From Fibrobacter succinogenes subsp. succinogenes S85 (lineage in GTDB: Bacteria; Fibrobacterota; Fibrobacteria; Fibrobacterales; Fibrobacteraceae): DNA of 32,000 nt. The position numbers and the translations under genes were made by a program. The notes under the pieces are model-generated. The model did not search any database and was not told the origin of the DNA. It saw only the letters and a list, made by a program, of their open reading frames with translations. The stretch covers positions 420,001-452,000 of the forward strand of contig NC_017448.1 of assembly GCF_000146505.1 (NCBI RefSeq). The letters are read 5' to 3'. This document shows positions 175 to 15,943 of the stretch, in pieces; position 1 is the stretch's first letter; each line of letters starts with the position of its first letter.

Positions 175-275
175 ATTAATTATCAAAATATTACGGTTTT
201 TATCGCAATTATTCGCATAACATTCCCATTTTATGTTATTTTTCTTTGCGTTAAAAACATTAAGTGAGAAAATCT

Positions 276-2492
276 ATGGAATGGAACGATTTCACGAGCC
301 TGACCGCAGAAAACATGCAGGCAATTTGGGACTTCAAGACTAAAGACCCGTTTTCAATTTTAGGTATCCACCCGCTCGAAACCGATCGCGGGATCAAGAC
401 CGTCATCCGCACCTACCAGCCGCAGGCCAGCTTTGTCCGCGGTGAATCGTGCGACGGCACTGAAGAATTTGATTTTGTGAAGCTTGGCGACACAGGATTT
501 TTCGAAGCCATCCTCGACTTGGAATACAAGCCGTTCTTTTACAAGCTCATCATCAAGCAGGGCGACGGCATCGAATACACGCTCGTCGATCCGTATGCAT
601 TCTTGCCGGTCCTCAGCGACTTTGACCGCCACCTGATTGCAACAGGCACGCACTACGAACTTTACCGCAAGCTCGGCGCCAACATCATCGAACACCAGGG
701 ATTCAAGGGCGTTCACTTCGCCGTCTGGGCTCCGAACGCTCGTGCCGTTTCTGTGGTCGGCAACTTCAACAGCTGGGACGGCCGCCGTCACCAGATGCGC
801 ATGCTCGGTGCCTCGGGCATTTGGGAAATCTTCATTCCGAATCTTGGTGAAAACGAACTCTACCGCTTTGAAATTCACGGCGCCGACGGGAACCTCCATG
901 TGAAGGTGGACCCGCTTGCAAAGCTCGCCGAAGTCCGCCCGGCAACAGCCTCCATCACAACACACCTCGACGGTTACGAATGGGGCGATGATCTTTACAT
1001 GAAGACGCACTGGGCCACAAAGGTCTTTGGCGCTCCGATGAACATTTACGAAGTCCACGCCGGTTCCTGGCGTCGCGACCCGGCTAATCCGGACCGTTTC
1101 CTCAACTGGGACGAGCTCTCCGAACGCCTCATCCCGTACCTCAAGGAAATGGGATACACGCACGTGGAATTCTTGCCGCTCGCCGAACACCCGCTCGACG
1201 AATCTTGGGGCTACCAGGTTACCGGTTACTACTCCCCCACGAGCCGCTACGGCACACCGGACCAATTCCGCCACTTTGTGGACCTTTGCCACCAGAACGA
1301 AATCGGCGTGATTTTGGACTGGGTTCCGGCCCACTTCCCGAAGGATGCACACGCTCTCGGACGTTTCGACGGCACTGCCTGCTACGAGCATGCCGACCCG
1401 CGTCAGGGCGAACACCCGCACTGGGGCACATACATCTTTAACCTCGGCCGTAACGAAGTCAAGAACTTCCTCATTGCAAACGCGATGTACTGGCTCAAGG
1501 AATTCCACTGCGACGGTCTCCGCGTCGATGCTGTAGCCTCCATGCTTTACCTCGACTACGGTAAGGGTCCGGGCGAATGGGTGCCAAACAAGGACGGCGG
1601 CAACATCAACTACGATACGCTCGAATTCCTGAAGCACTTGAACAGCATCATGGGTCGCCTGACCCCGCATGCCATCCTCATCGCCGAAGAATCAACAAGC
1701 TTCCCGAGCATCACTCGCCCGCCAGAGCAGGGCGGTCTCGGCTTCCACTACAAGTGGAACATGGGCTGGATGAACGACTTCTTGAGCTACATCCAGCACG
1801 AACCGATCCACCGCAAGTACCACCATAACCAGCTTACGTTCAGCATGGTCTACGCTTATTCTGAAAACTTCATACAAGTTTTCAGCCATGACGAAGTGGT
1901 ACACGGCAAGGGTTCCATGCTCGGCAAGATGCCTGGCGACAACTGGCAGAAGTTTGCAAACCTCCGCCTCACCTACGCTTTCCAGTACGCACACCCGGGC
2001 AAGAAGCTCAACTTCATGGGCAACGAATTCGGTCAGTTCCGCGAATGGAACGAAAAGCGCTCGCTTGACTGGCACTTGGTCAGCTGGGATAGCCACGGCA
2101 AGCTCCTTGAAATGATGAAGGTTCTGAACCACATCTACAAGGAAAATGCTCCGCTATGGGAAATTGACCATTACTACACCGGCTTTGAATGGATCTGGTG
2201 CGACGACGCCGACAATTCCATCGTAAGCTTCGTCCGCAAGGATGACCATGGCAACATGATTCTCTGCGTGTTCAACTTCACGCCGGTTGTCCGTAACGAT
2301 TACCGTCTGGGCGCTCCTGCTCGCGGTGCTTGGAAAGAAATTTTCAACACCGATGCAGCCATGTTCGGCGGCTCCAACGTCGGCAATCTCGGTGAAGTCT
2401 GGACGCAAGATGTTCCATGGCAGAATCGTGAATGGAGCTTGAACATCAAGCTTCCGCCTCTCGCGGCAGTTTACTTCAAACTCGAGAGATAG
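276..2492 (+). CDS. glgB: 1,4-alpha-glucan branching enzyme (GH13)
   Basis: Track ORF 264..2492 (742 aa). It is a full-length GlgB-like protein with a CBM48-type block GVHFAVWAPNARAVSVVGNFNSWDGRRHQM and GH13 blocks DGLRVDAVASMLY, ILIAEEST and FSHDEVVHGK. The GTG at 264 has no obvious SD, so the first ATG at 276 is preferred as the start. Confidence 0.93.
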   Translation: MEWNDFTSLTAENMQAIWDFKTKDPFSILGIHPLETDRGIKTVIRTYQPQASFVRGESCDGTEEFDFVKLGDTGFFEAILDLEYKPFFYKLIIKQGDGIEYTLVDPYAFLPVLSDFDRHLIATGTHYELYRKLGANIIEHQGFKGVHFAVWAPNARAVSVVGNFNSWDGRRHQMRMLGASGIWEIFIPNLGENELYRFEIHGADGNLHVKVDPLAKLAEVRPATASITTHLDGYEWGDDLYMKTHWATKVFGAPMNIYEVHAGSWRRDPANPDRFLNWDELSERLIPYLKEMGYTHVEFLPLAEHPLDESWGYQVTGYYSPTSRYGTPDQFRHFVDLCHQNEIGVILDWVPAHFPKDAHALGRFDGTACYEHADPRQGEHPHWGTYIFNLGRNEVKNFLIANAMYWLKEFHCDGLRVDAVASMLYLDYGKGPGEWVPNKDGGNINYDTLEFLKHLNSIMGRLTPHAILIAEESTSFPSITRPPEQGGLGFHYKWNMGWMNDFLSYIQHEPIHRKYHHNQLTFSMVYAYSENFIQVFSHDEVVHGKGSMLGKMPGDNWQKFANLRLTYAFQYAHPGKKLNFMGNEFGQFREWNEKRSLDWHLVSWDSHGKLLEMMKVLNHIYKENAPLWEIDHYYTGFEWIWCDDADNSIVSFVRKDDHGNMILCVFNFTPVVRNDYRLGAPARGAWKEIFNTDAAMFGGSNVGNLGEVWTQDVPWQNREWSLNIKLPPLAAVYFKLER

Positions 2493-2572: not shown

Positions 2573-2600
2573 ATCGGTAGCGCTATGCTGCCGATTTTTT
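2573..2600 (+). terminator. Rho-independent terminator for glgB (shared convergent site with the OMP gene)
   Basis: ATCGGTAGC-gctat-GCTGCCGAT (9-bp stem with one G-U) followed by TTTTTT. The T run overlaps the stop codon of the minus-strand OMP gene. Confidence 0.7.
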
Positions 2601-3216
2601 AATTCAATGCCACCGAGAACAAAAGCATCATGGAAGACGAGCGAAATACGCCATCGTCATCGGACCAGTATTCACCCGAATTATAGGCTAGCGACACCCC
2701 AATAGCGGTATGTTCACCAACCCACCAGTCCTTGCCCACTTCAATATCAAAGCTAAGCGCACTGAGCCCCGTATTCCCAGAATATTTATGGCAATTCAGG
2801 TTATAACCCGTCAAGCCCAGTGACCCGCTAATAAACACATTGTTCCACCCGGGTACATAATACGTTGCGCCAACGCCTAAATAAACGGAACTCAGCACGT
2901 AAAAATCGTGATCCATATAAGTCGCAAGCCCATAGCGCGCCTCTTGGAAATTAGAATACATCACGTACCCCAAATTCGCATGCAACGCCAAATCCGGCAC
3001 GACATAAAAACCGAGTTTTCCATGCACCCTTGCACCAAAACCATTGGCAGTCAAGGATTCCTCGCCATCGGCGTTTTCAAAAGACGCATACCCCATTCCC
3101 ATTGACGCATTTGCAAACAGCCCGTCGTGCGTAAACGGAGCAGAAAGCGGTCCGGCCCAAGTTGCCGAAACAGCCACTGACAATGCAAGCAATAATATAG
3201 CGAGAAGACGATCCAT
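2599..3216 (-). CDS. Small outer-membrane beta-barrel protein (hypothetical, OMP_b-brl-like)
   Basis: 205-aa ORF with an N-terminal signal peptide (MDRLLAILLLALSVAVSATWA). The rest is Gly/aromatic-rich with alternating hydrophobic strands (GFYVVPDLALHANLGYVMY, VYLGVGATYYV, AIGVSLAYN). The start lies 2 nt after the stop of the upstream B1 gene (TGA-TT-ATG). Confidence 0.7.
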   Translation of the reverse strand: MDRLLAILLLALSVAVSATWAGPLSAPFTHDGLFANASMGMGYASFENADGEESLTANGFGARVHGKLGFYVVPDLALHANLGYVMYSNFQEARYGLATYMDHDFYVLSSVYLGVGATYYVPGWNNVFISGSLGLTGYNLNCHKYSGNTGLSALSFDIEVGKDWWVGEHTAIGVSLAYNSGEYWSDDDGVFRSSSMMLLFSVALN

Positions 3217-3218
3217 AA

Positions 3219-4802
3219 TCAGTTTTGATACTCTAATTTAGCAAAATCAGAGACTTTCCAAAGCTTGACAACATCACCACGCAACCTAAACCCAAGCGAT
3301 ATATACGGCGAAATTCCTTTGGAATGACCATATTTCGAAGCTTTCATATTATGAAATCCGGCCTTCAAACGAATTGCAATTCGCCCCGTTATTGGATCGC
3401 CCTCAGGCATGGTCTTGCCTTCAAGACTCGGGAAAAGATAATCCACATACGCCCCAAAGCCGTAACGGAAATAACGTTCTTGCCTGTTTTCGCGTTTTTC
3501 TTCACCATCTCTGCGAACCACATAGAAAGCGGTACCCAAATTTGCAAATGCGGCCCCTTCAAAATATTTTGTCCTAAGCACTCTATAACCTAGCAAAGAA
3601 TGTATTCCATAATCAAAAAAGCCGCAGGAATCGCACTTTTCATCCAAGGATCGTGTATTGAATTCAAAAGAGAACAAAACATTATAAATCCTAAAATCTA
3701 AAGCGACATTAAAGAAGAAATATGGTTTGTAATCCGGGAAATCCCCAGCCAAAAACGGAATACCAAAATCGCTACCCAAGCCAAAACTGAAAGAGGACTC
3801 CCCTTCAATCAGGGATTTTAACATTTTTCCTAAAGCAATTGATTTCATCACAGGGCATGCCAAATCTTTATTGACTTCGGGCTTATCTTGCAAATCTTCA
3901 CATTTAAAATTTTCATGATAATCACGTTCTGCAACACGATTCAAAAGCAAATCAAGACCATCTTCGTATCGATACGTACTTTGCCTTACCAAATAATTTG
4001 ATGAAGAATCTTTATTTAAAATAAATTCATAATCACGATTCAAGTATTTCAAAAGAGCTTTTGATCGTGGCGACAAGTCCGCAGAATCCACAAGCTGAAC
4101 AGCAGTTGCATAATCACCATCGTAGACAAGAGATTCTATGCGTTTACGTACTTCAATCGCCGAGTTAGGTTCCACGCCATAATTCAAACGGTATGGGAAA
4201 AATTGTACATTTTCCAAGCTTTGAACATCCAAAAAAGCAACTGATTCAGATACACCTTCCAAAAAGAAAATTCTCTTATTCGGAATTTCTGAATCAAATT
4301 TGGGTACAGCAATCACGCGCAGGATCAATTTAAACGAAGAAGAATCCTTTAAAATATCAGGACCCATGTATGCAAATTGAGTGAAGACCTTTTTTGTTTT
4401 TTCGACAGGCGGATCCACCCAAGTTTTAGTTTCTTTGTCATAAATTTTGTCTACATGAATAATGTTATGGATTAAATAAAAACCATTTGTTTCTTTTTGC
4501 GAGCGCAGTTCAAATGTTTTGCGGACAATCTCGGGCGCTTCGGCCAAATCACGTTGCATTCGGGCCGTTTTCAGTTCAGACCATTCCATAAAAGATTTAT
4601 AGACATCCGGATATTCCTTATCAAAATTGACCCAGGGCAACCTATCCTCGCTGTACACATTACCCGTGATGAGCGAGCCATAATAAGCTACAGGCGCGGT
4701 TTCTAGCTTTTTCGCCACTGTTACCGAATTCACCAACATATCGTCATATGCAAAGCTATAAGACAGCAGCGTCAATACAATTGCAAAAATGTACTTAACC
4801 AT
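3219..4802 (-). CDS. Hypothetical secreted/outer-membrane protein, cassette gene B (copy 1)
   Basis: Track ORF 3219..4838, with the likely start at ATG 4802 (MVKYIFAIVLTLLSYSFA signal peptide). It is a clear paralog of 9786..11390: VAKKLETAPVAYYGSLI/VAQKLQTAPIAYYGSLI, SADLSPRSKALLKYLNRDYEFILNKDSS/SADLSPRSKILMKILNKEYDFIVNEDST, PFLAGDFPDYKP/PFLAGDFPDFDP, RSLDEKCDSCG/RSLDAKCDSCG, ERYFRYGFGAYV/ERYFRYGFGIYV. The C-terminal ~190 aa look like a beta-barrel. Confidence 0.75.
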   Translation of the reverse strand: MVKYIFAIVLTLLSYSFAYDDMLVNSVTVAKKLETAPVAYYGSLITGNVYSEDRLPWVNFDKEYPDVYKSFMEWSELKTARMQRDLAEAPEIVRKTFELRSQKETNGFYLIHNIIHVDKIYDKETKTWVDPPVEKTKKVFTQFAYMGPDILKDSSSFKLILRVIAVPKFDSEIPNKRIFFLEGVSESVAFLDVQSLENVQFFPYRLNYGVEPNSAIEVRKRIESLVYDGDYATAVQLVDSADLSPRSKALLKYLNRDYEFILNKDSSSNYLVRQSTYRYEDGLDLLLNRVAERDYHENFKCEDLQDKPEVNKDLACPVMKSIALGKMLKSLIEGESSFSFGLGSDFGIPFLAGDFPDYKPYFFFNVALDFRIYNVLFSFEFNTRSLDEKCDSCGFFDYGIHSLLGYRVLRTKYFEGAAFANLGTAFYVVRRDGEEKRENRQERYFRYGFGAYVDYLFPSLEGKTMPEGDPITGRIAIRLKAGFHNMKASKYGHSKGISPYISLGFRLRGDVVKLWKVSDFAKLEYQN

Positions 4803-4803
4803 A

Positions 4804-6000
4804 TTAGCGTTCCATGGTATCAGGATAAACAAATTCAACCGGTTTCATAGTCAACACAGGAATAGAAAACTCAATTGACATATAAAACCTAAATCCAGAA
4901 GCATTTACAGTATGATCCCCCCAAATATTTTTTATACCCGATCTGAAACGAAGATAAAACATATCGTACAGGATTCCAGCACCATACACCGGATAAACCT
5001 GATACGAATCCATGCTTGATCTATTTTTATCATCGTTACTTTTATTTTCACCGTAGAAATCGGCTTCAACACCAGTCGTTAAATAACACAACAACGAAAT
5101 ATCCCTAAAGTAATAGCCAACATTTAAGTTCCAGCCCAAATTGGAAAAATGAAGAGTATCACTGGATCGGACATCATTGAAATGCGCGTTGATTTGGCCT
5201 TCAAAACTTACATTGTTCCAATACCAGTTTGTCCCCCCATAAAAACCAAAACCATTCTTAACCTTATCCGAAATATCTCCTAAAAAGGCGACATAGGAAC
5301 CACCTAAGAAAAACGTATATGACTTGAGCGGGTCAACTTCCTTTTTATCCCAATAAGCATCAACTAGATATTCTAACTGTTCTCGTTTTTTCAATTGGAG
5401 TTTGTGTTCTTCAATCAATGATGGAACATCATATTTGTATTTAAAGAAACCCTTTAATACAATACAAATAAAAATCCTGTCACTCTCGTTTTCAACACTT
5501 TTGAGTTTTTCATCAAGTATTCCAGATTCAATTTCTGCTTTCAATTTTTCCTTAAAGGTTTTATGGAACGTATCGTAAACATAATCCGGCCTTGCATTAT
5601 AACGCGATACAAATTGAACATCACTAAGCGATTCAAAATCGCCTAAAAAGTATTTCAAGAGAAGTTTTTCGCTATCATGAATTATAAAATAAGTAGACGT
5701 CTTTTCATACGACTCAGCAACATCAACCAGTTTCTTTAAACGTACAAGGTTATCATCTTGCAAAGCTTTTCTCATCGCATTGCGAAGATACTTGACCTGG
5801 TCAAACTCTTGCCGAAGCATTTCTGATTCGCTGAATTTTTCAACGAGGCTCAACGAATCTATAGATTTAGTCTCTTCATAATCATGAACAAACAAGTTCA
5901 TCACAGAATCGCGCGAAGTCGATGCCTCGGCAAATGCATTACATACAAAAAACAGCGACAAAGCACTCAAAAAAGCAAAACATTTTACACAAACTCGCAT
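4804..6000 (-). CDS. Hypothetical secreted/outer-membrane protein, cassette gene A (copy 1)
   Basis: Track ORF 4804..6195 overlaps the xerD 3' end. The realistic start is ATG 6000 (MRVCVKCFAFLSALSLFFVCNAFA signal peptide), 34 nt after the xerD stop. It is a paralog of 11387..12646: DSVMNLFVHD/DSVMYLFVQN, LLLKYFLGDFESLSDV/LVIKYFLKDFEFLSQV, ESDRIFICIVLKGFFKYKYDVPSLIEEHKLQL/ESDRAFIYIVLNSMFRYKEDVSSMIENYKYQL. The stop TAA is 1 nt from the B1 ATG. Confidence 0.75.
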   Translation of the reverse strand: MRVCVKCFAFLSALSLFFVCNAFAEASTSRDSVMNLFVHDYEETKSIDSLSLVEKFSESEMLRQEFDQVKYLRNAMRKALQDDNLVRLKKLVDVAESYEKTSTYFIIHDSEKLLLKYFLGDFESLSDVQFVSRYNARPDYVYDTFHKTFKEKLKAEIESGILDEKLKSVENESDRIFICIVLKGFFKYKYDVPSLIEEHKLQLKKREQLEYLVDAYWDKKEVDPLKSYTFFLGGSYVAFLGDISDKVKNGFGFYGGTNWYWNNVSFEGQINAHFNDVRSSDTLHFSNLGWNLNVGYYFRDISLLCYLTTGVEADFYGENKSNDDKNRSSMDSYQVYPVYGAGILYDMFYLRFRSGIKNIWGDHTVNASGFRFYMSIEFSIPVLTMKPVEFVYPDTMER

Positions 6001-6034
6001 ACGATAAATATACAAAGTTTTAGTAAAAAGTAGC

Positions 6035-6928
6035 CTACTTCCCGCCCATCTCCCTCGGATGGAAACTGCGATGTTCTTGCTTGATAAAGTCTTTATCGAC
6101 GTGCGTGTAAATTTGCGTAGTGCTGATATCCGCATGGCCGAGCAGCTCTTGCAATACACGCAAGTCCATACCCGCCTCCAGGCAGTGCGTAGCAAAGCTA
6201 TGGCGGAACGTATGCGGCGAAACCTGTTTGCTCAAGTGCATCGTATGCAGTTGCACAATTTTCCAGGCGCCCATACGGCTCATCGGCTTACCATGCGCAT
6301 TCAGGATGATATTGTCCGTTGTCGGATGCGTTAAAGGGCGCCCTTCTTCAATCCAGGCGCGGAGATTTTCCTTTGCCTTGCTCCCAAGCGGTACAAGACG
6401 CTGCTTATTGCCCTTGCCAATCGGCATGAGCCATTCATTTTCAAGGTCAATTTGCGAAAGCTTGATGCCAAGCGCTTCCGAAATACGAAGCCCGCCACTG
6501 TACATGAGCTCAATCAAAGCCGTATCACGGAGCGGATTCTTACCGTTCGCTGCACTCTCAAAAACGCTGTCGATTTCTTCACGGGTCAGGTACTGCGGCA
6601 GGTAATGGCCAAGCTTTGGCGTTGCAAGCATCGATTCCGTGCTGTAATCGTACTCGCCCTGGATCTGCATGTACTTGAGGAACCCGCGCAAGCTCGAAAA
6701 ATGCCTCGCAACCGATGTCGGGGAATACTCTTCTTGCCCCGCCGTAAGCGTCAAGAATTCGTCCAGCTTTTCGGGCTGCAAGTCCTTAAGATCAATACCG
6801 TTCTCGTCAAGCCAGGCGATAAAATGCCTCAAATCCTCCTGATAGCTTTGAATCGTCACCGGGGATAGATTCCGTTCTACCCCGAGGTGCGAAAGAAAAG
6901 CGTCCAGACGGTTGGAGTTGAGGCTCAT
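6035..6928 (-). CDS. xerD: Tyrosine site-specific recombinase XerD
   Basis: 297 aa. It has an SAM-like N-terminal domain (LDAFLSHLGVERNLSPVTIQSYQEDLRHF) and catalytic blocks LMYSGGLRISE, GKGNKQRLVPLG, HTFRHSFATH and LLGHADISTTQIYTHV. GKGNK is typical of XerD rather than XerC. Confidence 0.9.
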   Translation of the reverse strand: MSLNSNRLDAFLSHLGVERNLSPVTIQSYQEDLRHFIAWLDENGIDLKDLQPEKLDEFLTLTAGQEEYSPTSVARHFSSLRGFLKYMQIQGEYDYSTESMLATPKLGHYLPQYLTREEIDSVFESAANGKNPLRDTALIELMYSGGLRISEALGIKLSQIDLENEWLMPIGKGNKQRLVPLGSKAKENLRAWIEEGRPLTHPTTDNIILNAHGKPMSRMGAWKIVQLHTMHLSKQVSPHTFRHSFATHCLEAGMDLRVLQELLGHADISTTQIYTHVDKDFIKQEHRSFHPREMGGK

Positions 6929-6947
6929 TTTAGCACGCTATGTAAAT

Positions 6948-8942
6948 TTAATCTTCTTCGTCTTTTTTTGAGGGCTTAGCGCAGCGGTCTGTAGCCCAGT
7001 TGGTCGACTTGAAGCAGGCACTTCTGGTGTAGCAACATCCGTATGCATTTTTATTGCCAAGATCTTCGCAATGGCAAGCAATTCCGTCACCTTCCTTCTC
7101 TTCGTCAACAAGTTCTCCGTTAGCGCAGACCACCATGTATCCGCCAGTGTGATAACTTGTGTTGATGCAGGTTTGGAGAGAATTGTGGCAAACTCCGAAG
7201 TAGGTACCCTGGATATTGCATGTTACGTGTCTCGTCTCGTTTGTAAGGTCGAATTCGAAATCTTCCACGCGTTCATCAGGAGAGGAGACTGGTTTGTGAT
7301 TATTCCAGTTGTACCCGTGAACGGTTTTTGCGGCCATCTTTTTACTAGGAATCAGTTCCTTCCATTTCTGTTTCGTCTCGAAACTTCTGAACGGCGGGTA
7401 GTCGGGGTCTTCGTCCTTGAGAATTTGCTTGCAACGTTCTTCGTTGTAGCAGGGATTGAAATCGTCCCATCCACTTTCGGAACGTCCCCAGCAAGGATCG
7501 CAATCAGAACATTGATCCGTGTTGCATTGGTCTATCATCTTATCTATAGGGTAGCCTTCTCTACAAGCGACGGGGCACTTGTAATACTCCTTGTCAAGCG
7601 GGTCGAACTTGTTATGGAGCCTTTCCCATTGCCCGTCGACGCACCTGTACATGATGGCGTTGTTATTGATGTCGTTGTCGCACCTCAGTTCGCCGTTAAG
7701 ACATTCGCCGCAGATGGCCTTGTCGGTACGGCACGACTTGTTGCCGCATATGGAAACGGCTTTCTTAGCTTCGCCGGCGACGCACTCGTAGACGGTTCCC
7801 TTTCCTTCGTCATCGTTGGTACAGGTGTGTTCGTAGTTCGTGCACTCGCCGCAACCGTTGTCGCGCGGGTCGCAGGATTTCCCGTTACAGCTCTCGGTCA
7901 CCTTCTCGCCCTTTTCGCAGCGGGTGACTGTCGCCTTGAAGTTTTTGTCTTCGGTGCAGGTCTGCACGTTGTCGAGGCATTCGCCGCAATCCGTGCCCTT
8001 TTCGTTACAGGAGACCAAGCCACACGAGCGGTTCACAATAACTCCTTTTACACATTCCTTTACGATACCGATATTTGCAGGGCTGTTAGAGCAGGAGTTC
8101 GTGTAGCTGTCGCCGCATTCCTTTTCAAGGACGTCCTTGTTAGCGCATTCCTTGCTCTTGGTATTGCAAAGAACACCCTCGTCACAAGCAGTTTCCTTGC
8201 AGACGCAAGCACCGTCTTTCGCGGTACCACCAGAAGCCTTGCACAAGTCATCGAAGGTCGGAGCGGATGCCGAGGAAGAGCTTGACTTGGATTCAGAAGA
8301 GGCGGCAACAGAGGATGAGCTGAGCTTGACCTGGTTTCCGCAAGCACCCGTGACAGTGTTGCAAACGGCACCTTCGTCACAGACCTCGCCTTTACAGACG
8401 CAGGCGCCATCTTTCATGGAGCCACCGGATGCCTTACACAAGTCGTTGAAGGTTGGAGCCGCGGAAGAGGAACTTTTTTTGGAGTCCGAAGATATATCGG
8501 AAGGTTTGCTTTGGTTTCCGCAAACACCAGTAATGGTGTTGCAAACGGCACCAACGTCGCAAAGTTCGTTTTTACAGACGCAAGCACCGTCTTTTGCGGT
8601 ACCACCGGACGCCTTACAAAGATCCGTGAAGGACTTCAGATCGTCCTTGACTTTGGACGAGGAACTGGCCTTGCTACTAGATGATTTTGCAGAACTTAAA
8701 GAATCTTTCTTGGAAACAGGAATCCAGTTTTCGCTGTGGCAATAGTAATCAGCATCTTCTTTTTTGGCGTAAACAGTATCGCCTTCATTTTCATCGCCAC
8801 ATATTCCAAGTTCGTAAATCGAGTTGACCTCCGTAATGATTTCTCTTGGGAGAGTTTCATCGCTAGATTCATCACTACAGGCGACAAGAATTGTCACGAC
8901 CATCATAGTCGCAAACAAAACGTCTAAAATTGTTTTTTTCAT
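6948..8942 (-). CDS. Ser/Cys-rich repeat lipoprotein (hypothetical)
   Basis: Track ORF 6948..8966. The start at ATG 8942 gives MKKTILDVLFATMMVVTILVAC with a lipobox (LVAC). It carries three ~60-aa repeats (F[TND]DLCKASGG..KDGACVCK..CD.G..CNT) separated by poly-Ser linkers. These are followed by four ~45-aa six-Cys modules (C-x2-C-x6-C-x12-C-x9-11-C-x4-C) and a further Cys-rich C-terminal region. Confidence 0.8.
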   Translation of the reverse strand: MKKTILDVLFATMMVVTILVACSDESSDETLPREIITEVNSIYELGICGDENEGDTVYAKKEDADYYCHSENWIPVSKKDSLSSAKSSSSKASSSSKVKDDLKSFTDLCKASGGTAKDGACVCKNELCDVGAVCNTITGVCGNQSKPSDISSDSKKSSSSAAPTFNDLCKASGGSMKDGACVCKGEVCDEGAVCNTVTGACGNQVKLSSSSVAASSESKSSSSSASAPTFDDLCKASGGTAKDGACVCKETACDEGVLCNTKSKECANKDVLEKECGDSYTNSCSNSPANIGIVKECVKGVIVNRSCGLVSCNEKGTDCGECLDNVQTCTEDKNFKATVTRCEKGEKVTESCNGKSCDPRDNGCGECTNYEHTCTNDDEGKGTVYECVAGEAKKAVSICGNKSCRTDKAICGECLNGELRCDNDINNNAIMYRCVDGQWERLHNKFDPLDKEYYKCPVACREGYPIDKMIDQCNTDQCSDCDPCWGRSESGWDDFNPCYNEERCKQILKDEDPDYPPFRSFETKQKWKELIPSKKMAAKTVHGYNWNNHKPVSSPDERVEDFEFDLTNETRHVTCNIQGTYFGVCHNSLQTCINTSYHTGGYMVVCANGELVDEEKEGDGIACHCEDLGNKNAYGCCYTRSACFKSTNWATDRCAKPSKKDEED
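8145..8630 (-). repeat. Three tandem ~180-195-bp coding repeats inside the lipoprotein gene
   Basis: Repeated DNA blocks on the + strand, e.g. gcagacgcaagcaccgtctttcgcggtaccacc (8200s), acagacgcaggcgccatctttcatggagccacc (8390s) and acagacgcaagcaccgtcttttgcggtaccacc (8570s). They correspond to protein repeats at residues ~105-144, 165-204 and 230-266. Confidence 0.85.
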
Positions 8943-8986
8943 GATTTTCCTCGATAACCAGGGCAAAGAAATAAAATTTTACGTAA

Positions 8987-9015
8987 AATTTAAATAAAAT
9001 AACAATTCACGTCAA
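8987..9015 (-). promoter_or_regulatory. Candidate sigma70-type promoter for the lipoprotein-xerD-A1-B1-OMP gene string
   Basis: The minus strand reads TTGACG - 17 nt - TAAATT, about 45 nt upstream of ATG 8942. It overlaps a near-perfect AT-rich palindrome AAAATTTT-ACGT-AAAATTT (8973..8991). Confidence 0.35.
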
Positions 9016-9147
9016 CGCGCTTGTGCGTTACAAGTTCAATGAAACCAATTCCATTGTTGTCTGGCCATGCGACGTAATCCAGCAAATTTCAACGAGCGGA
9101 TTCTTTTCATAATTCCACATTTTTTTTCTTTTTTCTTTAAAATCCCC

Positions 9148-9176
9148 TTGCCAATGCGTTTTTTCTTTTCTATAAT
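9148..9176 (+). promoter_or_regulatory. Candidate sigma70-type promoter of the tRNA-Lys array
   Basis: TTGCCA (9148..9153), a 17-nt spacer, then TATAAT (9171..9176). It is preceded by a T-rich UP-like tract, and the first tRNA starts 23 nt downstream of the -10 element. Confidence 0.55.
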
Positions 9177-9198
9177 TGTGCGCGTCCTAAGCGACTAT

Positions 9199-9271
<73 letters not shown>

Positions 9272-9401
9272 CTAAGCACTAAACCGCAAGGCTAGGTGCT
9301 GCAAATACAAAAGCGTCAGACAAAGCTAAGCGTCTAACGAACTTTGAAACTGCGGCTTTTGATTTTTGCAAAAAGACATTGCTGAAAGGCGACCAAATCA
9401 T

Positions 9402-9474
<73 letters not shown>

Positions 9475-9625
9475 CTAAATACCAAACCGAAAGGCAAGGT
9501 ATTGCAAATACAAAAGCGTCAGACAAAGCTAAGCGTTTTTGAAAGCGAAAGTGGAATCTAACGAACTTTGAAACTGCGACTTTTGATTTTTGCAAAAAGA
9601 CATAGCCAAAAGGCGACCAAATCAT

Positions 9626-9698
<73 letters not shown>

Positions 9699-9702
9699 CT
9701 AA

Positions 9703-9734
9703 ACACCATCTCATTGAGGTGGTGTTCTTTTTTA
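9703..9734 (+). terminator. Rho-independent terminator of the tRNA array
   Basis: Stem ACACCATCTC / GAGGTGGTGT (one G-U pair), a short loop, then TCTTTTTTAT. Confidence 0.75.
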
Positions 9735-9785
9735 TACCTAAGACCCAGCGCACAAATTTGCGCATGTCGCCCCCTCGTCTCACGC

Positions 9786-11390
9786 TTAACGCACGCCCAT
9801 GCAATGCCAGGTAATGCCAAGCGAGACAAACGGCGAAAGCCCCTTCGCCTGCCCGATATCCGAAATATTGATGTTCTGCGCCCCAAGCTTCAGTCGCACA
9901 CCAAAACGGTTCCCTATCCCCTGCTCAAAGAAACTATCAACAGGTCTCCCAATTAGCTTCGGGAACAGCGCTTCAACATAAATGCCAAAGCCATAGCGGA
10001 AATAGCGTTCATGCAGGTACTTTGGATCTTCAACGCCCTTTTGCGGAGGAACCTCTATCGCCGCAAATCCAAAATTGCACCAAACGCCGCTTTCAATATA
10101 ATCCTTTTTCAACCATAAATATCCAATTTCCACATGCGCACCAAAGTCCCCAGTACCGCACGAATCGCACTTGGCATCCAAACTGCGAATGCTAAGCCCA
10201 AGTCCGCCAAACCAATTGCCTAAGTAAACATTAAAACCAAATCCCAGATAAAATACAGGATCAAAGTCCGGGAAATCGCCCGCCAAGAATGGCCGTCCAA
10301 AATCGGCATACGCGTTAAAGCGAATAGGCCCCATCCAATGCACTACAGGCTTCGGCATTTCTCTTAAAGCAACCTTTTTGACAGCCTTGCAAACCAAAGC
10401 CGAATCCACATCTGGGTTATCCTGCAACGACTTACAATACCTGCCACTGACATATTCATGCATAGCGGCATCATTTAAAGCATCATCCAGCCGATCTGTG
10501 TAAACCACCCCATTGTAATCATCAAGATAGAGTCCCGTTGAATCTTCATTTACAATAAAATCATATTCCTTATTCAGAATTTTCATAAGGATTTTTGAAC
10601 GAGGCGACAAGTCCGCCGACTCCGCCAAAGCACCCGCAGATGCAAAATCCCCGCTTTCTACAAAGGCTTGCATCTTTTCACGAGCAGACATTGCAGCTGT
10701 CGGCTTCACATCATACTTCAATCGATGCGGAACGTAATGAATCTTATCAAGAATCGAAGTATCCATCAAGGAATAGCACTCTTCCGAATATCCATCCATG
10801 AAAAAGATTCTTTTAACCGGAACAGTCTGGTCTTCGGAATTGGGCAAAAGCACCATCATTCTCTGGGAAATTATCCACGAAGAATCTTGAGAAATATCCG
10901 GTCCGACATACGCAAAAGAAAACAGTTCCTTTTTCGCATCTTCAGGTTTGGGAGTCACCCATGTATGGGTCGCCTTGTCATAGATTTTTTCCACACGTAT
11001 TTCATCGTGGATCAAGAAAAAGCCCTTTATATTCATCAATGCATAGCGCTGTTCAAACATCTTCTGGTATTGTTCTGGAGCCTGCGTCAAAAGATTATCC
11101 TGGCGTTTCTGCTTATAGTTGGCCCACCCGACAAAAGACTCGTATACACGCGGATATCTTTGCTCGAATTCGGCATTCTCCGCATTATAAAAATCCTTCT
11201 GCAAATACGTTCTTTGGATAAGGCTACCGTAATAAGCAATTGGAGCCGTTTGCAATTTTTGAGCAACGGTCTGCGATTGAGAATAGCCCACAGAAGAATC
11301 GGAAAGAACGATATTATATCTAGTATATCGCGCTGCAAAAGAAAGGGACACCATGACCCCAAGCATCATCAAAAACCAACGAGCCATCAT
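9786..11390 (-). CDS. Hypothetical secreted/outer-membrane protein, cassette gene B (copy 2)
   Basis: 534 aa with a signal peptide (MMARWFLMMLGVMVSLSFA). It is a paralog of 3219..4802 (motifs listed there). The start overlaps the A2 stop (ATGA, 4-nt overlap). Confidence 0.75.
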   Translation of the reverse strand: MMARWFLMMLGVMVSLSFAARYTRYNIVLSDSSVGYSQSQTVAQKLQTAPIAYYGSLIQRTYLQKDFYNAENAEFEQRYPRVYESFVGWANYKQKRQDNLLTQAPEQYQKMFEQRYALMNIKGFFLIHDEIRVEKIYDKATHTWVTPKPEDAKKELFSFAYVGPDISQDSSWIISQRMMVLLPNSEDQTVPVKRIFFMDGYSEECYSLMDTSILDKIHYVPHRLKYDVKPTAAMSAREKMQAFVESGDFASAGALAESADLSPRSKILMKILNKEYDFIVNEDSTGLYLDDYNGVVYTDRLDDALNDAAMHEYVSGRYCKSLQDNPDVDSALVCKAVKKVALREMPKPVVHWMGPIRFNAYADFGRPFLAGDFPDFDPVFYLGFGFNVYLGNWFGGLGLSIRSLDAKCDSCGTGDFGAHVEIGYLWLKKDYIESGVWCNFGFAAIEVPPQKGVEDPKYLHERYFRYGFGIYVEALFPKLIGRPVDSFFEQGIGNRFGVRLKLGAQNINISDIGQAKGLSPFVSLGITWHCMGVR

Positions 11391-12646
11391 TTCACCCCGC
11401 TTTCTCTGAATGAATAGTCAAAATCAATAGGCTTCTTTGTATACTCACGGAACGTCCATTCAAGAGACGCATACAACCTAACGCCAGACGTTTTCAAGAC
11501 ATCCCCCGAAAAAAGGCTCCTCACGCCAGTCCTAAAGCGAAGTCCATGATGAATATGTTTTTTTTCCGTAAAGAACAGGTCCACCATCACTCCCGCGCCA
11601 AACGCCGGACTAAACTGAATTGGCAAATCATTATTCGCCTTGTCGTTAGAATCTTTACCTCGAGCGCTAAGTCCATTCATGCCCAGCCCCGCAGAAACAT
11701 AACCAAACAAGTTCAAGTGATCTTTTTTCAAGAATGTATAGCCAAAATTAAAATCCCATCGCATGTCATAAAACTGCAGGGAATCCAGTTCCTTATTTTG
11801 GCAACCATTGATATCCATAAACCATTCGTACAGAAAATCCTTACGCACGAAGTCAATGCCAAGGTACATACCGGGACTTAATCCAATTTTATCAGACAAT
11901 CGCCCAAACGACTTTATTACAGCCCCACCCCAAGAAAACGCAAAGTATTTTTTTGAATCATAATTTTCTTTATGCCAAAAACGATTGACCAAGAAATACA
12001 ACTGTTTTTCATCCGTCAGCTGATACTTGTAATTTTCAATCATCGATGAAACATCTTCCTTGTACCTAAACATGCTATTTAGAACAATGTAGATAAACGC
12101 ACGATCGCTCTCATCGGGAATTTCCCTAAGCGACTCTTCCATTTCTCCAGTTTCAATTTCTCGTTTCAACTTGAGATATACAGCAGAATGCAGGTCTCCC
12201 TTTATATGTTTTTTTAGCAAAGGTTTTACAGAATCCACTTGGCTCAGGAATTCAAAATCCTTCAAAAAATATTTTATAACCAGCTTGTCATTTGCATAAA
12301 AAACGTGATATACCGAAGCATTCTGATCAAAAATCTCCGCTTCTTCAACAACCTTCTTTAAACTTTCCATTCGGTCATCTTTCGAAGAATGCTCCAAGAT
12401 GTGTTCTATCGTGTTCCGATAAAACACCGCCATATCGCGCTCTTTTTCCAAAGAATCTTTATAGTTAGATACGATTTCCACATTTGCCGAAGTTTCAACA
12501 TAATTCAGCTTTTTTGAAGTATTTGTATCGGGATTTTGCACAAACAAATACATTACGGAATCAAACGGAACATCGCTTGCAGACGATGGCCGGCCCAAGA
12601 CAACAACAGACAAAAGAATAACAATAAGCAAAAATCGATGAAGCAT
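11387..12646 (-). CDS. Hypothetical secreted/outer-membrane protein, cassette gene A (copy 2)
   Basis: Track ORF 11387..12661 begins with TTG. The first ATG at 12646 gives the signal peptide MLHRFLLIVILLSVVVLGRPSSA. It is a paralog of 4804..6000. Confidence 0.75.
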   Translation of the reverse strand: MLHRFLLIVILLSVVVLGRPSSASDVPFDSVMYLFVQNPDTNTSKKLNYVETSANVEIVSNYKDSLEKERDMAVFYRNTIEHILEHSSKDDRMESLKKVVEEAEIFDQNASVYHVFYANDKLVIKYFLKDFEFLSQVDSVKPLLKKHIKGDLHSAVYLKLKREIETGEMEESLREIPDESDRAFIYIVLNSMFRYKEDVSSMIENYKYQLTDEKQLYFLVNRFWHKENYDSKKYFAFSWGGAVIKSFGRLSDKIGLSPGMYLGIDFVRKDFLYEWFMDINGCQNKELDSLQFYDMRWDFNFGYTFLKKDHLNLFGYVSAGLGMNGLSARGKDSNDKANNDLPIQFSPAFGAGVMVDLFFTEKKHIHHGLRFRTGVRSLFSGDVLKTSGVRLYASLEWTFREYTKKPIDFDYSFRESGVK

Positions 12647-12659
12647 AAAGTCAATATAC

Positions 12660-12691
12660 AAAAAAGAACTCCGCCGTTTCCGACGGAGTCC
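12660..12691 (-). terminator. Rho-independent terminator after the glycoside hydrolase gene
   Basis: The minus strand reads GACTCCGTCGGAAACGGCGGAGTTCTTTTTT: a 9-bp stem with one mismatch, loop GAAA, then a T6 run. Confidence 0.7.
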
Positions 12692-12733
12692 TTTTCAAGA
12701 TTTCTAGAATCTAGCTTACGAACCCTTGTTCAC

Positions 12734-15700
12734 TTATTCCAAAGTGATGAGAGTAAGGGTGCGCTTGCCGACCTTGATACCCTTAGAGATATCGACAGTC
12801 TTAGCCTTCTTGGACGGGTCGTTTGCCCAGCCTTCCTTAAGCTTTTCGGAGGTCTTGTCCAAAGTCTGGACCTTGGCCTTACCCTTGAAGCCCGGAATGT
12901 CAAGCTTGATGTCGAATTCGCTGTACGGGCTCTTGTTCACGAGGAGGAGCTGCTTCTTGTTGCCGTTTACAGTCCAGTAAGCGGTCAGGAGAGCGTCTTC
13001 GTCACCCTTGATGGTGGTCTTCATGAGCTTGCCACGGAGAGCGTCGGAAGCCATCTGGAATGCCCAGTAGCTCGGGCGCGGGCAGTTCATGCATTCTTCA
13101 CCAGAACGGGTCAAGTAACCATAGTCACCGCCTTCCGGAGTGATGTCGTTGTGGATATCCCAGTACTGAGCGTTGTCGACGTTTTCAGTAGCGAGCATAC
13201 CGAGGTAGTCAGCGACGAACAAGCCGTTTTCGACAGACAAGGTCTGCGGACCCGGGTTGAAGTCAACAGAGTTCCATTCGGTGAGCCAGAGTTCGATCTT
13301 CTTATCCTTGTTGTACTTCTTGGTCCACTTGTCCACGACCTTGTGCAAACGTTCGTAGATTGCGGTAAGGGTCTGCGGAGCAGAGAGCATAGCGAAGTCG
13401 TTTTCTTCGCCGAAGTGCTGCGGGTAGTGGTGGACGATAAGACCGTCAGCGATGTCACCCGTTTCAGCAAGGACCTTGTCGTTCCAGTCGCCTTCGAGAA
13501 CGCCGAGCACAGCCACCTTGATGGTCGGGTCAACTTTCTTCATGGCTTCGATGAACTTACGAGCGCGCTTACCATAGATGGTACCGCCGTCCTTACCATA
13601 CTTTTCGTAATACGGATGCCAGTTACCGTAGATTTCGTTACCGATTTCCCAGTAGAGGATGCCGGCCTTCTTGTCGATGTTCGTGTGCTTGACCCAGTCA
13701 GCGGCTTCCTTTTCAGTGCCGGAACCGAAGTTCACAGTGAACATAGCGTTAGAGCCAGTCTTCTTCAACCATTCGAGGAATTCGTCGGTGTCGACCATCC
13801 AGTCGTGGTTGTCGAGGATTTCCTTCCAGTGGTCGTCATCAGCACGGAGACCACCCGGGTAACGGATAATGCCGTGGTTGATGCGCTTTGCGTATTCGCG
13901 AGTCTGAACCTTGAAGTTCTTGTTGTCGAGCATGTCGCCGTCCCAGAGAGCGGCGTTGATACCGAACAAGCCACCAGAGATATTCGGGTTGAGGACATCC
14001 TTTTCGCCCTTCACCAAGACCTTGATGACAGCCGGACGTTCCTTAGCCTTGACTTCGCGCTGGTTGGTCAAACGAATGTTGTCAACCTTGAAGCCACCTG
14101 CAGTACCTTCACCACTCGGCTTGAAGTCGAGAGCAGTTACACCCTTGAGGTCGAAGAGACCGTTTTCAACAGCGTTAGGCGGTTGATAGTACGGGAACTT
14201 GCCGAACGTACGGAACGGAACGAGGATTGTGGTCTTGCCCTTCGGAGCACCGACGTTAGAAACGAAGATTTCGTTGCCAGCATCCTGAACCTGAACGGTG
14301 ATGGACTGCCATGCCTTTTCAGAGTAAACGTCGAACATGATGCCCCAGTGCTTGGTCCAGTCACGGTCAGCAGCCGGACGGCCATTCTTCTGCATGTCGA
14401 GCACAACGTCAACCCAGTCAGCAAGGAGGTAGTGTTCGATATTCAAGCAGTTGCTCTTGAATTCGGCGCAGTTTTCAACCTTGAACTTGAGCTGAGACTT
14501 CGGACCGGTGGACGGTTCCCACTTGTCCTTAGCAAACTTGCCTTCGAAGTCGGAGATCACGTAGTCCGGAGCGTTGGACTTGAAGGAATCCCACTTGAGA
14601 TCCGGGTCCACCCAGTCGATGTTGGACGTGAAGGTGATCTGGTCCACGAAGACCGTCACAGGAGCCGGCTTGCCCGGTTCGCCTGCGTTTTCGCCCTTGC
14701 CAACAGAGAAGCGGATTTCCTGAATCTTGTCCCACTTGATGTCCTTAGCGACTTCAGCGGACTTGTTAGCGTCCCAAGCCTTACCCTTGTCGGTGAAGCG
14801 CTTGAGAGGAATCTTGGCGAGCTGCCAATCCTTGGAGACCTTGATCCAGTCGTTGAGGCCGACCTTGGTCTGGCTCTTGATATCGTTGCCCTGGTTGTCG
14901 AGGATACCGACGTAGAGCTTTTCGCCACCGAGCTTACCCTTGATCCAGAAGTAGAGACCGCCCTTGTCGCGAACCTTGGAGAGGTCAATGAACTTGCCTT
15001 CACCGAGAGAGTAGGTCACGCCAGACCAGTCGTTGTTATCGATGTACATGGCGAGCACGTTCTTGTTGCCCGGAGTCTTGGACTGAGCTTCACGCTGAGC
15101 GGTGAGACCACCGTAGCTGTAAGAGAAGCCCTTGACCTGGTTGTCATAGAACGTAGCGAGCGTCTTGGCCTTGCCGTCGAGCTTTTCCGGGTTCTTCGGG
15201 CCGTCAATGATATCATTGTTTTCGTCCCAGTAGACCATCTGCTTCTTCGGGGCAGCCTTCTTGTTGCCCTTCACGATTTCGATGTTGTCGACCCAGACTT
15301 CGAATTCGCTTGCAGCGCTCTTGTCAATGGAGAAACGGATTTCAGCAATCTTGTCCCAGTCAATACGAGACGGGAATTCGGACTTGCGGGTGTTGTCCCA
15401 GTAGAGACCACGGTCCGGGAAGTCCACGAGAGGAATGGAAACCTTCTTCCAGTCCGTCGTCACGGCGCCGCCTTCGATGTACTTGTTCATCGGAAGCACG
15501 ACCTGAGTCTTCTTGCCGTCAGAAACTTCTTCGTCGAGGAGGCCGACCTTAACAGATTCGCCACCGTTCTTGCCCTTGATCATGAATTCGACCTTGGAGT
15601 CAAGCATGTACTTGTTCAAGTCGAAGAATTCATTGTAAAGGCAGATGGAAGCACCGGAGTATTCCTTCGGGTCCAACTTGATGTTCAAGGCAGCCTTGGA

Positions 15701-15895
15701 CTTGTAACCACCAGACTTGGTGATGGTGACACCCTTGCTCGTGCCGCCGTAAGAGTAATCGTATCCACCCGGACGGTACTGTTCATCGAAGAACTTGTAC
15801 ACAGCCAGATGCGGACGTTTCGGCTGAGCCATTGCAGCTGTAACGCTCAAGCCGAGGACGGCGAGCGAGGCAACTTTCAATGATTGCTTAATCAT
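12734..15895 (-). CDS. Secreted multi-module glycoside hydrolase (three CBM-like beta-sandwich modules plus a clan GH-A, GH51/GH79-like catalytic domain)
   Basis: Track ORF 12734..15904. ATG 15895 has AAGGA 8-9 nt upstream and gives MIKQSLKVASLAVLGLSVTAAMA. Catalytic-domain blocks are IIRYPGG, FTVNFGSGTEKEAADWVKHTN, WEIGNE (acid/base NE), HHYP and LTEWN (nucleophile E). The N-terminal half has two paralogous modules (YSYGG...IKGK.GGE...IPL..F...WDKI.EIRFS) and a third module starting ISDFEG. The exact GH family is not determinable by eye. Confidence 0.8.
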   Translation of the reverse strand: MIKQSLKVASLAVLGLSVTAAMAQPKRPHLAVYKFFDEQYRPGGYDYSYGGTSKGVTITKSGGYKSKAALNIKLDPKEYSGASICLYNEFFDLNKYMLDSKVEFMIKGKNGGESVKVGLLDEEVSDGKKTQVVLPMNKYIEGGAVTTDWKKVSIPLVDFPDRGLYWDNTRKSEFPSRIDWDKIAEIRFSIDKSAASEFEVWVDNIEIVKGNKKAAPKKQMVYWDENNDIIDGPKNPEKLDGKAKTLATFYDNQVKGFSYSYGGLTAQREAQSKTPGNKNVLAMYIDNNDWSGVTYSLGEGKFIDLSKVRDKGGLYFWIKGKLGGEKLYVGILDNQGNDIKSQTKVGLNDWIKVSKDWQLAKIPLKRFTDKGKAWDANKSAEVAKDIKWDKIQEIRFSVGKGENAGEPGKPAPVTVFVDQITFTSNIDWVDPDLKWDSFKSNAPDYVISDFEGKFAKDKWEPSTGPKSQLKFKVENCAEFKSNCLNIEHYLLADWVDVVLDMQKNGRPAADRDWTKHWGIMFDVYSEKAWQSITVQVQDAGNEIFVSNVGAPKGKTTILVPFRTFGKFPYYQPPNAVENGLFDLKGVTALDFKPSGEGTAGGFKVDNIRLTNQREVKAKERPAVIKVLVKGEKDVLNPNISGGLFGINAALWDGDMLDNKNFKVQTREYAKRINHGIIRYPGGLRADDDHWKEILDNHDWMVDTDEFLEWLKKTGSNAMFTVNFGSGTEKEAADWVKHTNIDKKAGILYWEIGNEIYGNWHPYYEKYGKDGGTIYGKRARKFIEAMKKVDPTIKVAVLGVLEGDWNDKVLAETGDIADGLIVHHYPQHFGEENDFAMLSAPQTLTAIYERLHKVVDKWTKKYNKDKKIELWLTEWNSVDFNPGPQTLSVENGLFVADYLGMLATENVDNAQYWDIHNDITPEGGDYGYLTRSGEECMNCPRPSYWAFQMASDALRGKLMKTTIKGDEDALLTAYWTVNGNKKQLLLVNKSPYSEFDIKLDIPGFKGKAKVQTLDKTSEKLKEGWANDPSKKAKTVDISKGIKVGKRTLTLITLE

Positions 15896-15943
15896 AATGT
15901 GCATCCTTTTGTTGTTTTTGATTTTAAATTACAAACTTGGAAA

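Follow-up and report, generated by a model that had tools for sequence, protein, structure and literature searches.

In Fibrobacter succinogenes subsp. succinogenes S85, a stretch of 32,000 nucleotides (nt; NCBI RefSeq assembly GCF_000146505.1, contig NC_017448.1, positions 420,001 to 452,000 of the forward strand; below, the window) contains two diverged copies of a two-gene cassette, here called A1-B1 and A2-B2. Structure models and sequence comparison make it highly probable that the products start with a signal peptide, continue with soluble domains and end in an eight-stranded outer-membrane barrel. They are thus of a known kind, small outer-membrane barrel proteins bearing additional domains, and not a new kind of system. 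The reading that we prefer, and to which we give about an even chance, is that A and B are a co-expressed, probably heteromeric pair acting as a periplasmic scaffold or tether anchored in the outer membrane. The family has so far been found in Fibrobacter only.

The cassette genes, the adjacent gene C1 and the predicted parts of A1 and B1 are listed below (window coordinates; lengths in amino acids, aa). Genes were found as open reading frames (ORFs) and named by exact look-up; domain limits are those of the AlphaFold2 models.

4804..6000, minus strand: A1, 398 aa (Fisuc_3106 / ADL25558; 'P2 domain protein')
3219..4802, minus strand: B1, 527 aa (Fisuc_3105 / ACX76685; 'putative P3 protein')
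2599..3216, minus strand: C1, 205 aa (Fisuc_3104; 'hypothetical protein'), a stand-alone small outer-membrane barrel gene
11387..12646, minus strand: A2, 419 aa (ACX76690; 'P2 protein')
9786..11390, minus strand: B2, 534 aa (ACX76689; 'P3 protein')
A1, N-terminal about 24 residues: predicted signal peptide, then a low-confidence linker (about 30 residues) up to about residue 55
5347..5829, minus strand: A1 predicted helical domain, aa 58-218 (helices 58-216)
4831..5346, minus strand: A1 predicted C-terminal eight-stranded barrel, aa 219-390 (strands 228-382)
B1, aa 1-18: predicted signal peptide, then a low-confidence linker at about 19-25
4167..4727, minus strand: B1 predicted N-terminal alpha/beta domain with long strands, aa 26-212
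3813..4166, minus strand: B1 predicted helical middle domain, aa 213-330, with a C-x15-C pair (helices 215-324)
3258..3812, minus strand: B1 predicted C-terminal eight-stranded barrel, aa 331-515

Paralogy, gene coupling and predicted structure

A first-pass annotation of this DNA, made from the letters and the ORF translations, had proposed the five ORFs and the paralogy of the two cassettes, and both proposals held. All five frames lie on the minus strand where it had placed them, A1 and A2 are paralogs along their full lengths (32% identity, 404 columns, E 4e-61) and so are B1 and B2 (41% identity, 524 columns, E 1e-130); every peptide that it had quoted as an example of the likeness was recovered in the translations. 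At the DNA level the two copies can no longer be aligned: megablast returned nothing, and blastn gave three short matches, the best with 75% identity over 115 nt. The coupling of the genes was likewise as described. In copy 1 the junction reads CGC TAA T ATG, so that B1 starts 1 nt beyond the A1 stop codon, and in copy 2 the B2 start overlaps the A2 stop codon (ATGA); between B1 and C1 there is a 2-nt gap (TGA TT ATG). All five N-termini combine a basic n-region with a hydrophobic h-region by hydropathy (10-residue Kyte-Doolittle maxima 2.4-3.6) and, on inspection, a cleavage motif made of small residues (AFA or SFA, for example), in agreement with the predicted signal peptides.

The cassettes had also been described as richer in A+T than the flanking genes. 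The GC content at third codon positions (GC3) was 0.34 in A1, 0.36 in B1, 0.41 in A2 and 0.46 in B2 versus 0.56-0.72 in ten neighbours, with C1 at 0.51. This A+T richness resides in codon usage, beyond any effect of amino-acid composition.

AlphaFold2 models of the A1 and B1 monomers, built on family alignments, reached a mean predicted local distance difference test score (pLDDT) of 79.1 for A1 and 83.8 for B1. They reproduced the domain layout proposed earlier, namely a helical domain followed by a barrel in A and mixed alpha/beta structure followed by a barrel in B; the A1 barrel is succeeded by a short conserved K..F.Y tail. The proposed small outer-membrane barrels found their counterparts by Foldseek (probability 1.0, template modelling (TM) score about 0.7, to NspA, OmpA, Ail and OmpX). 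In the comparison with PDB, the target-normalised TM (TMt) of the B1 barrel was 0.72 for NspA and 0.70 for OmpA, and that of the A1 barrel was 0.52-0.68, with OmpX at 0.68, Ail at 0.66 and OmpW also matched; OpcA was likewise among the closest solved eight-stranded barrels. The modelled barrels have a polar interior and a hydrophobic outside, the two strand faces being of opposite sign or clearly different in 15 of 16 strands, and they contain 19.5-21.3% Phe, Tyr and Trp and 11% Gly. Their strands, 14-22 residues long, exceed one membrane span. Judged by these models, the barrel is structurally of the OmpA/OmpX/NspA class and belongs to no curated sequence family.

The soluble domains had no PDB match, either by Foldseek with the A1 and B1 models or by a profile search of all PDB sequences. 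Low-probability Foldseek matches to maturation proteins of single-stranded RNA phages were discarded as noise (TM below 0.1).

Outer-membrane barrels with an even number of strands have both termini on the periplasmic side. Consecutive strands are connected by 6, 2, 5, 4, 13, 2 and 7 residues in the A1 model and by 8, 2, 5, 3, 10, 13 and 5 residues in the B1 model. Because both barrel ends would be periplasmic and the periplasmic side also has the shortest connections (2-4 residues), the soluble domains are most likely periplasmic and the barrel would serve as their membrane anchor. With a periplasmic N-terminus, the long, hydrophilic and indel-rich connection at A1 319-331 and B1 430-439 becomes external loop 3, and the CDSC motif, which lies in the connection between strands 3 and 4 of B1, is in external loop 2.

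Of the known eight-stranded proteins, the N-terminal domain of OmpA as well as OmpX, Ail, NspA and OmpW resemble the C-terminal part (155-185 residues) of the A and B proteins, with eight antiparallel strands that can be superposed on the models. The order of parts differs from OmpA, in which the barrel is N-terminal, whereas in A and B it follows 200-310 soluble residues; OmpX, Ail and NspA, unlike A and B, have no extra domain. Pfam gave no OmpA-like peptidoglycan-binding domain (PF00691) in either protein. In the Msp/Tpr proteins of Treponema (MOSP family) and in OmpM/SlpA (SLH plus coiled coil), a signal peptide and a soluble, partly helical N-terminal region that is expected in the periplasm precede a C-terminal barrel. 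The part order is like that of A and B, a likeness of layout only, and Tpr proteins also occur as diverged paralogs within one genome. Coupled pairs are not known as a feature of these families, however, and the A/B barrel has eight strands and is not of the large porin-like type; no MOSP_N, MOSP_C or SLH domain was found in A or B by Pfam. The type IX secretion system (T9SS) components PorP/SprF, PorV, PorQ and PorT had no Pfam or NCBIfam match in A or B. PagL appeared as a weak structural match (Foldseek E 9e-4), but no His is present among the invariant or near-invariant barrel columns of the A and B alignments, as would be needed for catalytic residues of the PagL/PagP kind (His-Ser-Glu type), and thus an enzyme of the PagL type is not suggested. 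Phage-encoded small barrels in BFVD share the fold of the B1 barrel (probability 1.0, TMt up to 0.60), a likeness that covers the barrel only. The PopA-like lipid-trapping porin family reported in Fibrobacter was set aside, having a different fold (16 strands) and different genes.

The first-pass annotation had recognised no family for A or B. This stood as far as curated families are concerned: neither Pfam nor NCBIfam gave a match at E up to 1, barrel families PF13505 and PF01389 included. Database names, however, already exist. A2 and B2 are themselves the P2 and P3 ORFs deposited next to celF (also ADL25495, ADL25892), and the names of A1 and B1 derive from these. The A2 cluster also contains an older deposit, the 251-aa P2 fragment AAC45378 / P71327. 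The 1056-aa neighbour encoded there is the cellulase C9RQE4 / FSU_0382, with the domains CBM30, CBM30, CBM11 and GH51 (PMC6851124). P2 and P3 are therefore ORF labels from the neighbourhood of celF, going back to the celF clone of the 1990s. Searchable main texts of the literature contained no mention of the locus tags, accessions or P2/P3 names of A, B or C and no functional study of them; the one exception is a row for Fisuc_3106 (A1) in an RNA-seq table (PMC4668043 Table S1).

Homology between A and B, distribution and selection

The cassette had been presented as two components, A and B. The linked pair is real, but its members are not unrelated: the A and B profiles are homologous (hhalign, B 222-525 against A 94-427, probability 98.3%, E 1.3e-14, 289 columns), and the aligned region comprises the helical domain and the entire barrel. 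In an exhaustive hidden Markov model search the B profile also retrieved the A-family proteins P0075 (E 1.7e-8) and P0175 (E 9e-6). Since A and B are mutually homologous, the cassette itself is, on this sequence evidence, an old tandem duplication of one gene, with B carrying an extra N-terminal alpha/beta domain. This domain occurs in B-type proteins only and is the best-conserved part of the family (mean pairwise identity 0.57).

A family signature could be read from the alignments: a helical motif, E-S-D-R-x-F in A (invariant columns E172, R175 and F177) or S-A-D-L-S in B, is followed by the barrel, which ends in R-x-R/K-x-G-x-x-N and G-x-S-P/x-Y-x-S. The four cysteines that had been called conserved in B are kept to different degrees. 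C393 is invariant and C390 nearly so. Most long B proteins also preserve the two cysteines of the helical domain; short B has neither of these, and two long B proteins retain just one. The 'short B' form (about 437 aa) is without the helical middle domain, and 'big B' proteins (570-640 aa) combine a B-type N-terminal domain with a longer helical domain, carrying an A-like S-x-D-R-A-F, and a barrel.

A word-indexed search of 5.8 billion clusters returned 46 B-type and 29 A-type clusters, and an exhaustive profile search of 1.84 billion representatives returned 41 proteins. All relatives with a name or informative neighbours are from Fibrobacter, the distant big-B group included, as are all 10 loci found in GTDB species representatives. 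No relative of A or B was found on IMG/VR viral contigs with either profile, and the PHROGs and PADLOC libraries gave no significant match for A, B, C or the Cys-rich ORF described below. The module is conserved, as had been stated, in that it is kept across loci; among the relatives with a name or neighbours this conservation is within one genus.

We mapped 10 genome and 14 metagenome loci, denoted by L numbers, and scored them for A, B, C and flanking genes. B lies directly downstream in 19 of the 22 A genes that could be assessed, and in most loci checked the two are separated by 1 nt or overlap by 4 nt. Across nine cassettes, the pairwise identities among A proteins correlate strongly with those among B proteins (Mantel r 0.95, p 4e-4), indicating that the pairs duplicate and diverge as units. 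A distant lineage has a big-B gene followed by an A-like gene with a 14-nt overlap (hhalign E 4e-5, from a single sequence). Co-inheritance is nevertheless strong rather than obligatory, as short B without A and A without B both occur; the idea that the two always travel together was therefore abandoned.

In the window, the other features around the cassettes are the following.

264..2492: glgB, convergent with C1 (ORF)
6035..6928, minus strand: XerD-type tyrosine recombinase, xerD (Pfam Phage_integrase and SAM-like domains)
6948..8966, minus strand: Cys-rich lipoprotein-like ORF, 672 aa
9199-9272, 9402-9475 and 9626-9699, plus strand: three tRNA-Lys(CTT) genes (tRNA scan, identical scores)
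12661..12696, minus strand: strong terminator-like hairpin, 16 bp stem and T-run, located after the cel51A stop codon (12734) and ahead of the A2 start codon (12646)
12734..15904, minus strand: cel51A / celF, endoglucanase F, FSU_0382 (Pfam: two CBM30 and CBM11)
15994..16728, minus strand: DsbA-like gene flanking cel51A (Pfam scan)

The order of genes along the minus strand is DsbA-like, cel51A, A2, B2, Cys-rich ORF, xerD, A1, B1 and C1, with 34 nt between xerD and A1. Cassettes have been gained and lost at this locus as at a hotspot, and its content differs in nearly every strain examined. A tandem double cassette, xerD-A-B-A-B-C, is present in L026 (1867-7362) and L027 (2818-8313), and the simplest layout, Cel51-A-B-C-glgB without xerD or tRNA genes, in L032. 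In the Fibrobacter-like loci L013 (1406-4056) and L011 (190-2767), two big-B genes (638 and 603 aa) flank a gene for a 245-aa protein consisting of a short N-terminal region and a small barrel with weak likeness to the A barrel (E 0.0015); the first big-B gene and a gene for an ABC ATPase overlap.

In comparisons with orthologs, the ratio of non-synonymous to synonymous substitution rates (dN/dS) was 0.13-0.22 for A and B and 0.03-0.11 for the flanking xerD, glgB and cel51A. By these ratios, A and B are under purifying selection that is three to five times more relaxed than in their housekeeping neighbours. Together with ORFs that are mostly intact in more than 20 loci, they bear out the earlier view that both copies have been maintained; in the metagenome contigs L025 and L035, however, the B gene is split. 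A1/B1 show the same level of synonymous divergence (dS) in L001 and L002 (0.65-0.97) as xerD/glgB (0.71-0.96), which fits vertical descent of A1/B1. In L003 and L004, A2/B2 have a dS of 0.9-2.3 versus 0.34-0.38 for cel51A, a pattern that suggests older alleles or exchange between strains.

Role of the A-B pair

According to the preferred reading, one ancestral gene would have given rise to A and B by tandem duplication, and the A-B pair would have been duplicated again as a unit, which would account for both cassettes in the stretch from cel51A to glgB that varies among strains. The products may assemble into a stoichiometric A:B hetero-oligomer in which two barrels are adjacent in the membrane and the helical domains, being homologous, pair beneath them. 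This assembly would act as an outer-membrane-anchored periplasmic scaffold or tether, being neither a channel nor an enzyme, and the long strands, together with the variable third loop, would extend outwards from the cell. A hetero-oligomer is the most economical explanation of the coupled translation, linkage, co-divergence and shared helical domains taken together, and we judge it about equally probable to be right or wrong. An eight-stranded barrel is too narrow for a protein channel. The scaffold role is a tentative assignment and, taken by itself, rather doubtful.

Several observations weigh against this reading. Scaffold or tether is a default interpretation for soluble domains that have neither structural nor sequence relatives. 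The models have a predicted TM score of 0.60-0.62, so that the placement of domains relative to each other is uncertain, and the third periplasmic turn of B, at 13 residues both long and conserved, is atypical. Pairing is broken in several loci: a short B gene follows cel51A directly without A in L008 and L010, an A-type gene is followed by C without B in L003, and in L028/L029 a solitary A-type gene occupies a second locus, between mdh and a convergent gene for a small outer-membrane protein. Transcription of A1 in culture is weak, with 25 and 23 reads per kilobase per million mapped reads (RPKM) compared with 1088 and 818 for cel51A (PMC4668043 Table S1), and the supplements of Fibrobacter proteome and multi-omic studies, as far as their text is searchable, gave no entry for the proteins.

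Even so, A/B may reasonably be regarded as a candidate envelope component specific to this lineage. Its interest lies in a family so far found only in Fibrobacter, under purifying selection, with unmatched soluble domains and in a strain-variable slot beside the surface endoglucanase Cel51A. At present its value is that of a well-delimited family with an ordinary barrel fold and not that of a new principle; it offers a small, concrete target for genetics, proteomics and structural work.

It is also conceivable, if unlikely, that A and B are strain-variable surface adhesins or receptors for phages or predators, like Ail, OmpX, NspA and Opa, with the loops as the working part and with duplication and turnover caused by diversifying pressure. 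The nearest solved structures are indeed adhesin-type eight-stranded barrels (NspA, Ail, OmpX, OpcA), the strands of 14-22 residues reach beyond the membrane, loop 3 is hydrophilic and rich in indels, and locus content varies from strain to strain; a non-synonymous rate of A/B that is 3-5 times that of the flanks and the atypical codon usage point in the same direction. Diversifying pressure, however, is at odds with a dN/dS of 0.13-0.22, far under 1. Several barrel segments are among the most conserved of B, and divergence is spread evenly across the domains without a hotspot in the barrel. Neither viral contigs (IMG/VR) nor the PHROG and PADLOC libraries yielded a relative, and the predicted periplasmic domains, half to two thirds of the mature protein, would be left unexplained.

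A connection with secreted glycanases was suggested by the neighbourhood. On this account, A and B would be accessory outer-membrane factors that help to retain, assemble or deploy surface glycoside hydrolases, Cel51A for example, either at the outer membrane or on vesicles, which we consider distinctly unlikely. Of the 8 other genome loci with cel51A, 6 have an A or B gene directly beside it, as does S85, with copy 2 or a short B right behind cel51A. The T-run of the hairpin after cel51A is 13 nt from the A2 ATG, which leaves no room for a sigma-70-type promoter and makes read-through plausible; A2-B2 may be expressed by such read-through or be leaderless. In L014/L015 (7303-10911) and L012 (2-2200), a big-B gene (about 630 aa) begins 0 nt after a DUF4874/DUF4832 gene, which itself follows a GH9 cellulase gene, and some further relatives are within two genes of GH43-like or GH18 genes. 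Cel51A has neither a T9SS signal nor a basic terminal domain (PMC6851124), which leaves its route to the surface open.

Against these associations, an eight-stranded barrel cannot conduct protein, copy 1, flanked by xerD and glgB, has no gene for a secreted enzyme close to it, and other relatives adjoin unrelated genes (ABC ATPase, UvrA or mdh). Glycanase genes are abundant throughout Fibrobacter genomes, so that chance could explain the adjacency, and synteny within one genus does not provide independent cases. A1 transcription was moreover unresponsive to cellulose (25 vs 23 RPKM; PMC4668043 Table S1). Altogether, the link between A/B and glycanases is only a hint, with a small chance of being real. 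Equally improbable is its more specific form, in which A and B would be a Fibrobacter-specific complex organising cellulases without a T9SS signal, such as Cel51A, on the surface and on vesicles. F. succinogenes is among the most effective cellulose degraders known; if this form were true, A/B would be a missing structural part of the non-cellulosomal cellulose-degrading apparatus.

The low GC3 of the cassettes (0.34-0.46 vs 0.56-0.72 in the neighbours), the three tRNA-Lys genes and XerD-type recombinase between the two copies and the varying presence of the cassettes among strains could be taken to indicate recent import as cargo of a horizontally acquired genomic island. We rejected a mobile island as very improbable. 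The recombinase is itself conserved, syntenic and under strong purifying selection (91-96% identity in other strains, dN/dS 0.03-0.055), A1/B1 and their flanks have equal dS in L001 and L002, and the Cel51-A-B-C-glgB layout of L032 does without recombinase or tRNA; among the relatives, no identified one from outside Fibrobacter could serve as donor, and none is on viral contigs. That the copies are decaying or functionless duplicates persisting by chance is scarcely credible: the low A1 transcript level, the lack of a mention in searchable proteome supplements, the loss in some strains (L010) and the split B of L025 and L035 stand against full-length frames in all other examined loci, a dN/dS of 0.13-0.22 in every A and B comparison, by which pseudogenes were rejected, invariant motifs, confident models and two copies that are still open at only 32% and 41% identity.

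Gene C and other neighbours of the cassettes

C1 had been described as a third gene attached to copy 1, and this part of the proposal did not survive. C has no detectable homology to A or B (hhalign probability 4% or less in both comparisons), which excludes it as a third member of the family, and its position is independent of theirs: C keeps the glgB/metK end of the locus with or without A and B. It is present beside xerD in L010, where A1/B1 are absent, and missing in L002, where A1/B1 are present. C is thus a resident neighbour outside the cassette. Its orthologs gave a weak match to PF13505 (OMP_b-brl) in 5 of 7 cases (best E 1.8e-4).

The 12-mer TTTTnCTAAATT was found just 5' of the C start in four loci (window 3217-3245, minus strand; L010 11030-11056; L003 10400-10430; L001 6490-6524), and it is retained whether B, an A-like gene or nothing precedes C. 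It may have remained from the 3' end of B after deletions, or it may be an expression signal of C itself.

xerD forms one edge of the variable slot that contains copy 1. It starts 19 nt past the Cys-rich gene and ends 34 nt before A1, as if co-transcribed with the envelope genes, a placement that is odd for a chromosome-dimer resolvase. In several strains the slot also contains a conserved gene for a polytopic membrane protein of 447-450 aa (L004 7548-8891, L005 2560-3903, L008 9597-10949, L009 3194-4546) and, in L005, additionally a gene for a serine-rich lipoprotein-like protein. At the big-B loci L014/L015 and L012, a DsbD gene is located on the other side of big B.

The product of the Cys-rich ORF has a lipoprotein-like N-terminus (…ILVAC) and three repeats of the form '..DLCKASGG..KDGACVCK…CD.G..CNT…'. 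Its counterparts in L001, L010 and L026 share about 90% identity with it, at a dN/dS of 0.19, and Pfam and NCBIfam, like PHROGs and PADLOC, contained no match to it.

The tRNA-Lys(CTT) genes are part of an array of three direct copies (window 9130-9708, plus strand), with a unit of about 152 nt, spacings of 203 and 224 nt and one tRNA gene per unit. The array was seen by direct-repeat search and missed by Tandem Repeats Finder. Among related Fibrobacter loci the copy number of the unit varies from 0 to 3.

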